Below, one piece after another: positions 6,678-11,365 of a DNA stretch of 64,000 nucleotides. Under the pieces are notes generated by a model. The model was not told where the DNA came from, did not search any database, and was given only the letters and a program-made list of their open reading frames with translations. Made by a program: the position numbers and the translations under genes. This stretch comes from Thermoplasmatales archaeon. Lineage in GTDB: Archaea > Thermoplasmatota > Thermoplasmata > Thermoplasmatales > GCA-001856825. Within the stretch, counting starts at the first letter, position 1. Each line of letters begins with the position of its first letter. The stretch covers positions 4,574 through 68,573 of the forward strand of contig JAJSLL010000007.1 of the NCBI GenBank assembly GCA_026127935.1. The letters are read 5' to 3'.

Positions 6678-7145
6678 TCAGGAGTATTTTAGATCATCGA
6701 TGTATTTTGCCCTCTCTAGGACTTTAAACTTTGAAATATCCTTTGGAATTTCGAGGACCTTTACGTTCACGATGGAATCGACGTAGTTCTCAAAATCCTC
6801 CTCAGACATGTTCTTGAATGTGAGGTTTCCGATATTCTTGAAGCTGATTTTTTTGTTGTTTTTGACGAGTTCGGGCCCAGATATCTCTATTGAGTTCAGA
6901 TCCTGGATGTAAGTGATCTTCGAGTCTTTTACTGCCTGTAAAAATTCTTCTCCGACCTTCTTTGTCTCCCCTGCAGCCGCAAGCAGGACCTTGAAGGCGT
7001 CGTTGGTTAAATCTCCGACAGTTTTACCGGTGTCCCTTGCAAGGTCTTTCACTCTTGCATAGACCCTCTTTTGTATTCCCTTGATCGATACATTTTCTGT
7101 GTCTTGGCGATCATTCTTTTCTTTTTCATCTACCATGAAGGACAA
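6678..7145 (-). CDS. Hypothetical protein with an N-terminal ribbon-helix-helix-like segment
   Basis: NVSIKGIQKRVYARVKDLARDTGKTVGDLTNDAFK fits an RHH pattern; repetitive beta-rich C-terminal half. Confidence 0.55.
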   Translation of the reverse strand: MSFMVDEKEKNDRQDTENVSIKGIQKRVYARVKDLARDTGKTVGDLTNDAFKVLLAAAGETKKVGEEFLQAVKDSKITYIQDLNSIEISGPELVKNNKKISFKNIGNLTFKNMSEEDFENYVDSIVNVKVLEIPKDISKFKVLERAKYIDDLKYS

Positions 7146-7183
7146 TGGTTATCTGGAATATAAGATTTCTGGTTTTCCATAAA

Positions 7184-7909
7184 TCAAGCTGTCAAGAAAG
7201 TATTCAGGAGATCTGCGAATTTCTCTGGAAATTGGACGTGAGGTACGTGGTTCCCATTATCTATCTCGACGAAGGTGCTCCCCTGTATATATGCATGGAG
7301 CATCCTTCCGTTTTCAATTGGGATGACATCGTCATCCTTTCCCCATATGATCATCGTCTTCGCCTTTAATTTCTTCAATTCAGACTCCTTTAGTTTCCAG
7401 CTCGGGTTAGAGTTATTCTTCACTATGTTGGATATGACTGACCGAGAGTTCATTGGGTTGCTGCGCACTACCATTTCCACGAATTGGTCTCTGCTTCCCG
7501 CTTCCATTTCTCCGAACGTTCTGTTTACTCCAGCGCTGTCTTCCAGCACCAGGTGAGTGGGTTGCTTTCTGTCGAGTGAATAGCGCATTGCTACCCATCC
7601 TCCGTAAGAATTGCCTACTAGAGAGACATCTTCCAGACCCAGGGCTTCTGTTAGTTCCCATATCACGTCTTCCTGCACACTGATGGTATACTCGATGTCG
7701 GGTTTCGCTGATCTTCCCTGACCCACCAGGTCAAGAAAATAGAGACCGATACCTTCCTTCAGATACTGTGGCAGCTTCATCCAGGAGTTACCTGTCCCAC
7801 CCAGACCGTGAAGGAAGATAACTGGGATTTTTCCACTTCTCTCGATGTAAGATACGTTTCCATACGAGGACTTGAAACTCCTTCTGAACACCGTCTGATA
7901 TGCGGTCAC
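7184..7909 (-). CDS. Alpha/beta fold hydrolase
   Basis: FLHGLGG, nucleophile elbow GNSYGG, WGKDD acid, GNHVPH catalytic His. Confidence 0.9.
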   Translation of the reverse strand: MTAYQTVFRRSFKSSYGNVSYIERSGKIPVIFLHGLGGTGNSWMKLPQYLKEGIGLYFLDLVGQGRSAKPDIEYTISVQEDVIWELTEALGLEDVSLVGNSYGGWVAMRYSLDRKQPTHLVLEDSAGVNRTFGEMEAGSRDQFVEMVVRSNPMNSRSVISNIVKNNSNPSWKLKESELKKLKAKTMIIWGKDDDVIPIENGRMLHAYIQGSTFVEIDNGNHVPHVQFPEKFADLLNTFLTA

Positions 7910-7924
7910 TCGATAAAGCGTTAT

Positions 7925-7936
7925 CAGTATCTCCGA
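7925..7936 (+). repeat. Left terminal inverted repeat CAGTATCTCCGA
   Basis: Exact reverse complement of 10734-10745; preceded by TSD GTTAT. Confidence 0.85.
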
Positions 7937-8016
7937 GTTGAGTAAATCTTAAGGACAGCTTCGGCTATCAATGTTGAGAGAAACGGAAAGGATAGCTATC
8001 CACAAACAGGATCAAA

Positions 8017-9084
8017 TCATTCCTGTCTGCGGTTTCTTTCCTTTCTCTCCTCGTTGTCCACCATAGTTGTGCATGCATCGCTCAGCTCGATGAGAAATCT
8101 CTTGAAGCTCACCTCCTTGTTGTAGAAGAGATACCAGATCGCCTCTATGAGCTGCTCGTATGCAAACAGAAAATAGCGGACCTCAATCATCTTTGATTTT
8201 GTCTTGATTCTGCTTTCATCTTGAACCCTGAACATCGTTTCGATTCTCCATCGTATCTTGTATTGAGCTATGATGGAATCGAGATTCAATTCCTCCATGT
8301 TCGTTGCAAACACCCAGTCGTAGTACTCCGAACTCCTCCTGTCGAATATCTTCCTCAGGAATGCCAGCTTCGTATCCCCTTTGATCTTCTTGTTGTCGCT
8401 GTAGAACGAGAACTCATAGACCATCACCTTCTTCTCTCCGAACTTCATAGATTCAAGCTCCCTCCTCTCCATCTCCCTCTTGGGTACGAATATCAAGTAT
8501 GGGACTGGAAGACTACTGAGTCTAACGATCAGGTCCTTAGAATAGAACCCCCTGTCAAATAGCAGTAGATCGATGCTCGGAACAACGGTCTTGATGGTCT
8601 CGAGAATGGACATGACTTCGGCAGGCATTATGTTCCCTGCCGGAGAAGGTATTGAGATTATAGGCAATTTCATCTCTTTGTTGACGATGCTTGCAGTAAG
8701 GTAGGAATACTTTCCCGTAACTCCATTCTCTCCAGTCCAGCCATGGATCCATCTGTCGTTCACCTCGCCGTAGAAATCCTCAGTGGTATAATCAAAGGCG
8801 ATGATGTACCTCTCCTTCCCAATACCGGAGTGTTTGGATATGGCGGATATCCTTGAGAAGAGGGAGTTCTTTATGGACGATGGGGAGGAGTTCTCTATTC
8901 CCAGGTATAAGGAATCTGATCTGTTCCCTACAGTTTCCACATAGGTGTTGGCAACGGCAGCTCTCAGTAAATCACGGTTATAATGGAATTCGCTGAGATT
9001 GGTGGAATGGTGTTTCAGGCAGAGAGAATCGTTTGTGAAGTGTTCAAGCGTTTTCAGAGATGAAATGAGGCGATCCCTGTTCAT
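8017..9084 (-). CDS. DDE transposase, IS4 superfamily (ISH3-like)
   Basis: AFDYT (D), LFDRGFY (D), YKIRWRIETMFR (Y-x2-R-x3-E signature); intact 355 aa frame. Confidence 0.9.
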   Translation of the reverse strand: MNRDRLISSLKTLEHFTNDSLCLKHHSTNLSEFHYNRDLLRAAVANTYVETVGNRSDSLYLGIENSSPSSIKNSLFSRISAISKHSGIGKERYIIAFDYTTEDFYGEVNDRWIHGWTGENGVTGKYSYLTASIVNKEMKLPIISIPSPAGNIMPAEVMSILETIKTVVPSIDLLLFDRGFYSKDLIVRLSSLPVPYLIFVPKREMERRELESMKFGEKKVMVYEFSFYSDNKKIKGDTKLAFLRKIFDRRSSEYYDWVFATNMEELNLDSIIAQYKIRWRIETMFRVQDESRIKTKSKMIEVRYFLFAYEQLIEAIWYLFYNKEVSFKRFLIELSDACTTMVDNEERKERNRRQE

Positions 9085-9233
9085 GCAACTATTATGTATA
9101 CGGTTCTACCAAGATATTCCTTGGGACAGTCAATCTTTGCGCTATTCCCGAACTTCGTTACAGTTCTTATGAAATACCCCTCTATGTTCTTTACCTCCAC
9201 CCTTGAAGCTGGTGTGATGGGTCTCTTGATCAT
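9081..9233 (-). CDS. DUF2080-family transposase-associated protein (AbrB-like)
   Basis: RTVTKFGNSAKIDCPKEYLGRTVYIIV motif; likely start ATG 9233 about 25 bp after a TATA-like TTTATTA; 4 bp overlap with the transposase start. Confidence 0.8.
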   Translation of the reverse strand: MIKRPITPASRVEVKNIEGYFIRTVTKFGNSAKIDCPKEYLGRTVYIIVA

Positions 9234-9694
9234 GGGATATACAATACATATCCAATAATAAACTTTCTGTTCGGTCAACATAAAAGAAAAACTAATGAAC
9301 TGCTATACAACTCTATGCGGAAATCACAAGAACTTGTCAAATTCTTAACACTTTCCATATTCGAGAATTAAATGAGGTTAAAGAAAGAGGGCTTTATGCA
9401 TCTTATGAAAAAGGGCGATTCTTCTATCTCAGAGTTAAAGCGATTTAACTTGATTATTTAGAGAATCTTGCGTGCACTCTAGCCGAAGAACTTGAAAGTG
9501 TGTAGTGTTTCTCAAAAAAAATTCGAAGATGCCAGAGGCAACCAGAGATAGAAAGGGTAACATACAGGAGAGAATAAGGAAACGTTGAAGAAAAGGATCA
9601 AAATGATACGTTCAAATAATAACAAAAGAATTCAGAAAAGAAACGAATGTCTTCCTGGTTTTGGTATTGTGGATAACTTCCTCCATTTAGAAAA

Positions 9695-10599
9695 CTAGGT
9701 GCCTGTGCCGCCAGATGCAACCCATATATAGCTAGCAGAATAATCACTAGATTCCCACGTGAAATCTAGGTTATTCTCGCTTCCACCGGGTGAGCCGAAG
9801 AATTGAGAGTTCGCATTAGATACATCTAGGTATTGTGATATCCAGTATCTGTTGGACGTCATCACGTTCCACTCGTTATAGAGACTATATGATACGCCAT
9901 TCGTTGTAAAATCGGTATCTTCAAAAATTACATCAGAGAATTTTGGAAGTTGCGCATATATGCTATTATAATAAAAAGGTGTTTCGACCACCCACTGTGT
10001 GTAATAGGATGGGTTGTAGTAGTATATGAATACGATGGCATCTGTTGGCCGTTGGTCAAATCATCGTAAACATAATTATACTGTGAGCCAGTAAACGTAA
10101 TGCTCACTTCCACCAAATCGCCAGGGTTCGGCACGATTGATGAGTAGGTTAATTCTCCATAATTTCCAAAGAACATCGAATAATAGACCTTTCCATTTGA
10201 AGATACGTTTCCCTGAATTCCAATCTGCATAAAGAAAGCGCCATTCCCTCCGCTTTCGGGGCTCAAACCTATCCACGCAGAAACTGTAGGGTAATAGGAA
10301 AACTGATAGTAACTCTCGTATTACACAGTCGGAACTTGAATTATTGCTGAAACTTGTGTTATTAATGCGGTATTTCCAATTTCAAATCCTATCCAGTTGA
10401 CGGTTGTCGTCTGACTTGCAGCACTATCATTCGTTGAATTACTCGTTGAATTTACAATTCCTTCTGCCGGAGATTCATTTGTTAAGTCGTGCTTGGGCAT
10501 AATCGATGAGACTGGTTGATTGCGAGTTAACATAAACACAGAAAATGCCGAAGCAATTATTATAATCACAATAAAAATTGCGATTACTTTTCTATTCAT
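9695..10599 (-). pseudogene. Secreted G1-family glutamic peptidase (eqolisin/Peptidase_A4-like), disrupted
   Basis: Reassembled frame: signal/TM MNRKVIAIFIVIIII, NWIGF, in-frame TAA at 10321-10323, SAWIGL, FMQIG (catalytic Q), PGDLV, 1 bp frameshift in a TG repeat at about 9996-10002, then QWVVETP (catalytic E) and QLPKF. Confidence 0.75.
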
Positions 10600-10733
10600 T
10601 CTCGTCACTCTTTATCTCCTTTACTATATTTATCCTTTCCCCCTGGGCAGTCCTGTCTGTTTATAAGAATTATGACGTTAAATTGTTGATCAGAAGACGA
10701 ACTCTATGAAGCAATCATTGAATGTATCTTCTT

Positions 10734-10745
10734 TCGGAGATACTG
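10734..10745 (-). repeat. Right terminal inverted repeat
   Basis: TCGGAGATACTG followed by TSD GTTAT (10746-10750). Confidence 0.85.
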
Positions 10746-10789
10746 GTTATTCAATTAATTTTATTAGCAGGTACAAATTATACTAGTCC

Positions 10790-11365
10790 ATGGAAAAGAT
10801 AGCTTCCAAAAAAAGCCTAAACGTAGCTGGAGTTCTGCTTTTTGTTTTTGCCGTTCAATTTACCATTATGCTGTTTATCACAGAGGCACTCTATCACGGC
10901 TACAGCATTGCAAACAATTACATCAGTGATCTCGGAGTCGGACCAACGGGATTCCTCTTCGACACGTCCATTTCTGTCCTTGGGATTGCTGTTATAGCAT
11001 CAGCATTCTTTGTGTATCGCGGTTTCAACGTAAAGGTGTTCCCCATCCTGTTAGGGCTGACCGGTGTAGGTGCACTTCTGGTTGGTGTTTTCAATGAGAA
11101 CTATGGAGCGCTTCACGGATATGTTTCGGACTTAACATTCATAATGGGACCATTGACCGCAATCTACGCCTACAGGTACCAGACCTCTCCCTTTAAGTTC
11201 ATGTCGGTCGCTCTTGGAGTGGTCTCGTACATCGCAATCATCTTCTTCATGTTCTTTGGGTCACCCCTTATAGGCGTCGGCGGTTGGGAGAGGCTGATCG
11301 TTTATCCCTTCCTACTATGGGGAATAGGTTACGGGGCATTCTTGACGGGATTGTCTTACAAGTAG
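10790..11365 (+). CDS. DUF998 family membrane protein
   Basis: YHGYSIANNYISDLG, GALLVGVFNE..LH, GGWERLIVYP. Confidence 0.85.
   Translation: MEKIASKKSLNVAGVLLFVFAVQFTIMLFITEALYHGYSIANNYISDLGVGPTGFLFDTSISVLGIAVIASAFFVYRGFNVKVFPILLGLTGVGALLVGVFNENYGALHGYVSDLTFIMGPLTAIYAYRYQTSPFKFMSVALGVVSYIAIIFFMFFGSPLIGVGGWERLIVYPFLLWGIGYGAFLTGLSYK

Follow-up and report, generated by a model that had tools for sequence, protein, structure and literature searches.

A possible transporter insertion sequence of the ISH3 type with a glutamic peptidase pseudogene as passenger in a Thermoplasmatales archaeon

Whether an archaeal insertion sequence (IS) can carry a gene unrelated to transposition between its own ends is the question raised by a locus on contig JAJSLL010000007.1 of a Thermoplasmatales archaeon (assembly GCA_026127935.1). 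In the 64,000-nucleotide stretch of this contig that was analysed (hereafter the window; its source genome is designated G000), a segment of 2,821 bp at positions 7925–10745 sits between two host genes. This segment contains a transposase gene in its left part and a peptidase pseudogene in its right part, and is flanked by two copies of the pentanucleotide GTTAT. The segment may be best described as a transporter-IS-like derivative of an ISH3-type archaeal IS, the whole 2.8 kb of which moves as one; we assign to this reading, which is based on sequence comparison, a probability of roughly 0.78.

The perfect 12-nt inverted pair at the two ends is by itself unremarkable in this stretch; a second such pair (I15, 8926/10280) occurs by chance within the same 3.7 kb. 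The ends of the element are regarded as genuine because the termini of homologous ISs in related genomes match them and because an empty site exists. The first 18 nt of the element, CAGTATCTCCGAGTTGAG (7925–7942), are conserved at the left ends of the relatives, which read CAGTATCTCCGA(G/A/C/T)..., and the right ends of the relatives read ...CTTTCGGAGATACTG. Seven complete relatives (L002, L003, L004, L044, L045, L046, and L048), 1,414–1,426 bp in length, were identified. CAGT is present at both ends of the window element and likewise in the seven relatives, with CACT or CAAT at one end in L002 and L004.

The left flank of the element (6900–7924) was found in 18 of the 41 related genomes, G000 included. 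Fourteen loci were retrieved from other genomes. In 13 of them (L014–L026), the flanking hydrolase and DUF998 genes are adjacent without the 2.8-kb insert, and the remaining locus (L027) contains part of the left flank only; no IS was found at this site in these relatives. In the two closest genomes, which represent sister species (G006, locus L014; G007, locus L015) and whose flanks are 95–97% identical to those of the window, the junction reads ...ATAAAGC GTTAT TCAATTA..., with one GTTAT. In addition, one contig of sequencing run X4, which belongs to a study other than that of the probable source run, joins position 7919 to position 10746, with five letters fitting either side. Because the empty sites contain a single GTTAT, the whole of 7925–10745 is inserted DNA, and its insertion duplicated 5 bp. 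An earlier note, made from the sequence alone, had described perfect terminal inverted repeats and a 5-bp GTTAT duplication bounding 2,821 bp, had predicted an empty site with a single GTTAT, and had named the lack of such a site and of other elements sharing these ends as what would speak against it. The coordinates were confirmed, the empty site was found in G006, G007, and the X4 contig, and the canonical relatives share the ends.

The left 1.40 kb of the element is an ISH3-type IS. The element matched sequences in 13 of the 41 related genomes (G000 counted), and all matches outside G000 are located at element positions 1–1402, save three hits of 26–27 nt. The transposase is full length when compared with those of eight relatives and retains the motifs AFDYT, LFDRGFYS, and YKIRWRIETMFR, which contain the conserved D, D, and E residues. 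Seven NCBIfam families were matched, of which ISH3 (NF033541) was the best (93.9 bits, E = 9.3e-27, model positions 8–297 of 298) and IS4 the next (47.5 bits), but the score of 93.9 bits is far under the curated cut-off of 225 for NF033541; because of this shortfall, the transposase is assigned, from its sequence, to a divergent branch of ISH3. Homologues of the transposase numbered 1,496 at E ≤ 1e-20, and the few with source names were from metagenome-assembled genomes (MAGs) of Thermoplasmata, Thermoplasmataceae, and Thermoplasmatales, from mine-drainage records, from a Candidatus Acidifodinimicrobium MAG, and from Methanospirillum (49% identity). The DUF2080 gene product scored 43.4 bits with NF033496 (cut-off, 22), and a DUF2080 gene was found upstream of the transposase gene in 10 of 16 IS loci. 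In the window, its stop codon overlaps the start codon of the transposase gene (ATGA at 9081–9084); its open frame extends to 9281, and the 50-aa form found in relatives starts at 9233. The transposases of some relatives appear to be inactivated: in that of L003 (G014:C1) the second catalytic D is replaced by N (LLNRGFYS), and the reading frames of L046 and L047 are truncated, the window copy being among the intact ones.

The right end of this IS is incomplete. Homology to canonical copies extends over 7925–9262 (86% identity to L002) and, with L006, to 9326. In the alignment of right ends, the IS in the window tracks the canonical subterminal sequence to ...GAAATCA (9326) and then lacks the final ~23 bp, whereas the outer right end at 10700–10745 aligns over 46 bp to canonical right ends. 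The distance from the transposase start to the right tip is 1,661 bp in the window and 240–266 bp in the relatives. No internal end-like sites with two or fewer mismatches were found in the element; four sites with three mismatches were found (approximately two are expected), none at the expected place. Because the inner tip is absent and no internal end exists, the element has one usable pair of ends, with the passenger obligatorily inside.

The passenger DNA (9327–10699; 1.37 kb) has a GC content of 0.38, compared with 0.44 for the IS part and 0.44–0.46 for the flanks, a composition that marks it as foreign. Its gene is a pseudogene of a G1 (glutamic) peptidase with a GC content of 0.398 (0.449 for the window), which retains an N-terminal hydrophobic segment and is read in two frames after the stop codon. 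The middle piece of the pseudogene scored 20.7 bits on PF01828, just below the cut-off of 22.3. An intact relative of 304 aa (P0001), encoded on 11 contigs (the longest being 10,790 nt), shows 86% identity over residues 3–206 and 90% identity over residues 199–304, and scored 53.4 bits on the same model. A profile of P0001 and 19 distant relatives matched aspergillopepsin II (1y43_B, E = 2.3e-31) and scytalidopepsin B (1s2b_A, E = 4.3e-28). In alignment, the invariant residues Q128 and E209 correspond to Q24 and E110 of the 1y43 heavy chain (1y43_B), which we take to be the catalytic dyad of G1 peptidases, and both codons survive in the frames of the window.

P0001 is highly isolated at the sequence level. 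At E ≤ 0.001 it matched no more than 20 of 1.84 billion representatives, the next full-length relative being 41% identical. Two of the 1.84 billion representatives matched at E ≤ 1e-10, one of which is a 105-aa protein with 87% identity to residues 145–237 of P0001, the region of the middle pseudogene piece. P0001 was the only find of the word-index protein searches. The search for the passenger DNA in 169 genomes of the order was negative, with matches of 26–59 nt only, and nothing above 33% identity to P0001 was found outside G000 in 401 genomes of the class and 401 of the phylum. Scans with P0001 yielded 162 pattern matches in JGI metagenomes and two in viral contigs, with no relatives among either. 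A scan of genome contigs with a 112-aa piece gave 72 pattern matches and a single weak relative (55% identity over 22 residues, in a Bacteroidia MAG), which was taken as chance.

The passenger was found in another context. In two runs of one study with a mangrove metagenome label (X2 and X3), one contig each (1,943 and 3,913 nt) matches 9678–10720, with 53 differences and three indels (~95% identical). In these contigs the peptidase gene is intact: with a G at 10321, a Tyr codon stands where the window has the stop, and the frameshift is removed by one additional base behind 10010. Past 10720, the contigs carry a right end with 3 differences from that of the window in 26 positions, followed by at least 255 nt unlike the flank in the window; before 9678, at least 255 nt are unlike the sequence of window positions 7425–11245 at 80% likeness. 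The contigs were not placed on 7925–9326 at 80% likeness, which was not used as evidence that the IS is absent there. Peptidase and right end are thus linked in another organism and genomic context, which suggests that their junction arose elsewhere than at the G000 locus and that the module is, or formerly was, mobile. This argues, at the level of sequence, that the passenger and the right end travel together. The features of the locus are listed in Table 1.

Table 1. Positions of the element, its parts, and the neighbouring host genes in the window
Feature	Position	Strand	Remarks
Host gene, alpha/beta hydrolase	7184..7909	-	Flanks the insertion; start codon GTG (7909) 11–15 nt from the insertion point
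Left target-site duplication copy, GTTAT	7920..7924		Single GTTAT at the empty sites L014 and L015 and at the X4 joint
Left terminal inverted repeat	7925..7942	+	12 nt CAGTATCTCCGA (7925–7936) pair perfectly with the right end
DDE transposase, 355 aa, intact	8017..9084	-	Pfam DDE_Tnp_1, E 6.7e-8; aligned with eight relatives
DUF2080 transposase-associated gene, 50-aa form as in relatives	9081..9233	-	Pfam PF09853, E 5.7e-17
IS right subterminal region with likely promoter	9234..9326		Truncated ~23 bp before the canonical tip; inner right inverted repeat missing
Inner copy of the 18-nt right-subterminal motif	9309..9326	+	15/18 identical to 10700–10717 (direct repeat D4)
AT-rich spacer, 351 bp	9327..9677		No recognisable gene or RNA; outside the mangrove-matched stretch, which starts at 9678
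G1 (Pfam Peptidase_A4) glutamic peptidase pseudogene	9695..10608	-	Two lesions: TAA stop at 10321–10323 and 1-nt deletion at ~10010
Peptidase upstream (promoter) region, part of the passenger	10609..10699		Covered by the mangrove contigs, ~95% identity
Outer, functional right end: subterminal motif and inverted repeat TCGGAGATACTG (10734–10745)	10700..10745	+	Aligns to the right ends of L002, L003, L004, L006, and L046
Right target-site duplication copy, GTTAT	10746..10750		Matches the empty sites and the X4 joint
Host gene, DUF998 membrane protein	10790..11365	+	Flanks the insertion

These results agree with much of the gene content given in the earlier note, namely an intact DDE transposase gene (full length versus relatives), a coupled DUF2080 gene (the ATGA overlap), and an AT-rich peptidase pseudogene (Peptidase_A4). 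The 'about 460 bp' that it regarded as decayed DNA proved to be 45 bp of IS right subterminal sequence (9282–9326), the 351 bp of non-coding spacer, and 17 bp behind the peptidase stop. It had offered two readings of the whole. The first, a transporter IS mobilising passenger genes in an archaeon, gained support from the ISH3-type ends, the empty site, the absence of an internal end, and the recurrence of the module with another flank. The second, insertion of a transposase–DUF2080 unit into a cargo cassette, is unsupported as a nested insertion: homology to the IS begins precisely at the outer left end, and neither an inner left end nor an inner duplication is present. As an origin, fusion with an adjacent transposase-less cassette is a less likely possibility (see below).

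In the proposed mechanism, the transposase, probably aided by the translationally coupled DUF2080 protein, would recognise the left end at 7925 and, with the right tip of the IS itself missing, would use the next genuine right end, located 1.4 kb further on at 10745. The piece moved would thus comprise the transposase and DUF2080 genes, the 351-bp spacer, and the gene for a secreted-type G1 glutamic peptidase with its upstream region. The whole 2.8 kb would be excised or copied and then integrated via a 5-bp staggered cut; here it would have entered the 54-nt divergent promoter region between the hydrolase and DUF998 genes, duplicating GTTAT. IS4-related transposases act by DDE cut-and-paste chemistry, and by analogy the same mode presumably applies to this element. 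As to the capture of the passenger, we infer either that it inserted into the right end of the IS with loss of the tip or that an IS and a cassette were fused.

Several points weigh against this reading. In addition to the low NF033541 score described above, a perfect 5-bp duplication was found in two of the eight complete copies (GTTAT in the window and AAGTA in L046); two others have a duplication matching at four of five positions and four have none, and the 5-bp habit of the IS family rests on these few cases and the literature. The duplication and the empty site prove that DNA was inserted, but not strictly in one event. One insertion of the full 2.8-kb unit was found, and no second site at which transposase and passenger occur together. 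The count of a single copy comes from a draft genome of 33 contigs assembled from a metagenome, which may miss unassembled copies. In run X1, the probable source run, the summed depth is ~607 over 7937–8064 and ~294 in the flanks, and near-identical left ends of the IS are therefore present elsewhere in the probable source sample, so that the single copy may be an undercount. Finally, the mangrove module may be part of a transposase-less cassette or of a diverged IS.

The alternative that survives best is about the origin of the unit and does not conflict with its moving as one piece today. According to this explanation, which we consider somewhat unlikely, a complete IS came to lie beside a transposase-less cassette made up of a left end, the peptidase gene, and a right end (a 'mobile insertion cassette', MIC), and the left end of the IS and the right end of the cassette are those now used, the inner ends having decayed or been deleted. 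The start of the mangrove match only at 9678, with unlike sequence further left, is in line with such a cassette, as are the inner and outer 18-nt motifs, which differ at 3 of 18 positions as if derived from two diverged elements. A weak left-end-like stretch at 9425–9470 aligns to the left end of L046, but this falls short of significance (z = 3.3; observed score 24, with shuffled sequences reaching 29), and the stretch was dropped as a candidate for a decayed inner left end. There is also no inner left end with two or fewer mismatches, and no such cassette was seen.

A history of two events in place is improbable. In this scenario, a canonical 1.42-kb IS would have inserted at GTTAT, the 1.37-kb passenger would later have entered its right end, and the 2.8-kb unit would never have transposed. 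The duplication and the empty site cannot tell one event from two, and the passenger is flanked by the imperfect 18-nt direct repeat D4. However, the same junction of passenger and right end occurs in contigs from another habitat with another flank, which makes a two-step history at this locus unlikely. A simple insertion would also leave an inner tip of ~23 bp, which is absent here, and none of the relatives carries an IS at the site, 13 of 14 loci lacking the insert and the other containing a partial left flank. An artefact, i.e. a chance inverted repeat and duplication or the misassembly of an IS with a foreign fragment, is hardly credible: although the chance pair I15 lies in the same 3.7 kb and G000 is a metagenomic draft, homologous ISs share these termini, the empty site agrees down to the single base, and an independent assembly of the probable source run (perhaps of the same reads) contains a 10,392-nt contig that covers 9114–11245 without differences and another that covers 7425–8064.

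Regarding copy number, blastn and tblastn searches with the element, the transposase, and DUF2080 revealed no further copies in the 33 contigs of G000 besides that in the window, and the complete 2.8-kb unit was not found in the 40 relatives. In G006 only a 27-nt match to the spacer was found, and in G007 none, so that the IS part had no match in the nearest relatives (completeness, 89 and 76%, respectively). Because G000 has one copy and its nearest relatives gave no IS match, we infer that the element likely arrived by horizontal transfer after the split from G006 and G007. The host itself is archaeal; a partial small-subunit ribosomal RNA on G000:C30 was matched best by the archaeal model (637 bits). 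The X1 contig that covers the left end departs from the window sequence behind 8064. Together with the rise in depth, this loose end at first suggested a short deletion derivative; visual comparison shows its letters to be similar to the homologous stretch in L002 and in the window, and a diverged IS copy in the sample is more likely.

Sequences resembling IS ends occur at two other places in G000. At about 89860–90039 of G000:C20 (minus strand), a left-end-like sequence shares 17 of 18 conserved nucleotides and is followed after ~165 nt by a degenerate right-end-like ...CATTTCTGAGAAACTG, with no matching 5-bp duplication; the pair may be a decayed short non-autonomous derivative. At G000:C21:4037 (minus strand), a solo right-end-like sequence, CGGTATCTCCGAAAGCAGG, has no partner within 3 kb and may be an IS scar.

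Within the outer right end of the window element, positions 10724–10743 form a hairpin of their own with an 8-bp stem (GTATCTTC TTTC GGAGATAC). At the place matching this hairpin, the loose end of the mangrove contigs reads GTATCTTCTTTTGGCGATAC, and the GTATCT arm is absent from the canonical right ends of relatives, e.g. L046.

The spacer is AT-rich (GC content of 0.345 over 9327–9694). Its open reading frames matched no Pfam family (best, DUF7337 with E = 0.18). No tRNA and no Rfam family was found in 7800–10900, and hence no integrase-type attachment site is suggested. A scan for sigma-70-type promoters, a type unsuited to archaea, gave results at chance level. The stretch 9568–9594 matches G000:C29:61329–61355 and G006:C20 at 26 of 27 positions. 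This match was dropped as a relevant one, the G000:C29 site being at the 3' end of an unrelated beta-lactamase-like open reading frame, and is probably due to chance or to a short shared motif.

On the host side, the insertion splits a 54-nt divergent intergenic (promoter) region, the parts of which are now at 7909–7924 and 10751–10789. An A/T-rich box located 22–30 nt upstream of the hydrolase start in the empty site is now at 10753–10765, 2.8 kb distant. Although intact, the hydrolase gene probably either lacks its promoter now or relies on the IS end, and the DUF998 gene retains its TTTTATTAG box.

The family description of ISH3, in the sections available, gives archaeal elements of 1,225–1,500 bp with termini CRGT, duplications of 4–5 bp, five being typical, and the motif Y-(2)-R-(3)-E-(3)-R where other elements would have the complete YREK motif (De Palmenaer et al. 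2008, PMC2266710). The window element resembles these in its CAGT termini, its 5-bp duplication, its archaeal host, and the same motif in the form YKIRWRIETMFR, which is kept in nine aligned transposases, and the canonical relatives fall within the size range of the family. It differs from the family as so described in its length of 2,821 bp and its peptidase passenger, the family being confined to transposition genes, and in its DUF2080 accessory gene, which is not mentioned for ISH3 in those sections of PMC2266710.

ISs with passenger genes unrelated to transposition are termed transporter ISs in the ISsaga paper (PMC3129680). Extra DNA and passenger genes are described for IS231-subgroup elements, and modular extra DNA had not been seen outside that subgroup as of 2008, according to the sections available (PMC2266710). 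Like transporter ISs as defined there, the window element has one transposase and one pair of ends and contains an unrelated gene (9695–10608) within 7925–10745, but the transporter IS and IS231 examples in those sections are bacterial and this element is archaeal. In the IS231 examples given, the extra DNA occupies the interval from the left end to the transposase gene; in the window element its place is between the accessory gene and the right end, where the duplicated right-subterminal motif brackets it. In its discussion section, a 2019 survey states that composite transposons with passenger genes were undetected in archaea (PMC6563490).

As in compound transposons and MICs, passenger DNA here would be mobilised by IS ends, with a second copy of an IS end as the outer right end. 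Unlike a compound transposon, the element has one transposase gene and, on its right side, only 46 bp of an IS end rather than a second complete IS; unlike an MIC or a miniature inverted-repeat transposable element, it encodes its own intact 355-aa transposase. In ISEcp1-type one-ended mobilisation, the transposase skips or lacks the proximal right end and uses a distal one, carrying along the DNA between them. The use of a distal right end and the taking along of intervening DNA are common to both, but the distal end in the window is a genuine 46-bp IS right end, not a look-alike, and the proximal tip is physically absent. The passenger protein resembles the G1 (eqolisin) peptidases aspergillopepsin II and scytalidopepsin B in its profile match and the aligned Q and E residues of P0001, and differs from them in its isolated sequence, its N-terminal hydrophobic segment, and the broken frame of the window copy.

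A literature search, which left subscription journals mostly outside its coverage, found no ISH3 element with a passenger, no archaeal transporter IS, and no paper pairing DUF2080 with a transposase. The terms 'passenger', 'composite transposon', and 'DUF2080' do not occur in the main text of a 2026 survey of archaeal ISs (PMC13343696). A passenger-bearing ISH3-type IS thus apparently is unreported, although its principle is already known from bacteria and it is not a new kind of system.

The significance of the element is limited by its single full copy and its dead passenger in this genome. A wider reading, possible but doubtful, is that an ISH3-type transporter IS, or an IS together with an end-sharing cassette, shuttles a rare gene for a secreted glutamic (acid) peptidase among archaeal lineages that are unrelated and occupy different habitats (mine drainage and mangrove sediment). 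If true, this would be the first documented horizontal spread of IS-borne, potentially adaptive cargo in archaea, and the duplication of the right-subterminal motif would point to a capture site that can be used again. In bacteria, passenger-carrying ISs make the distinction between ISs and transposons less sharp and provide a main route to mobility for single genes. The element described here may provide a concrete and testable archaeal example of gene capture through the loss of an inner IS end, and a defined mini-element consisting of the two ends, the transposase, and DUF2080 would offer a way to probe the role of DUF2080.

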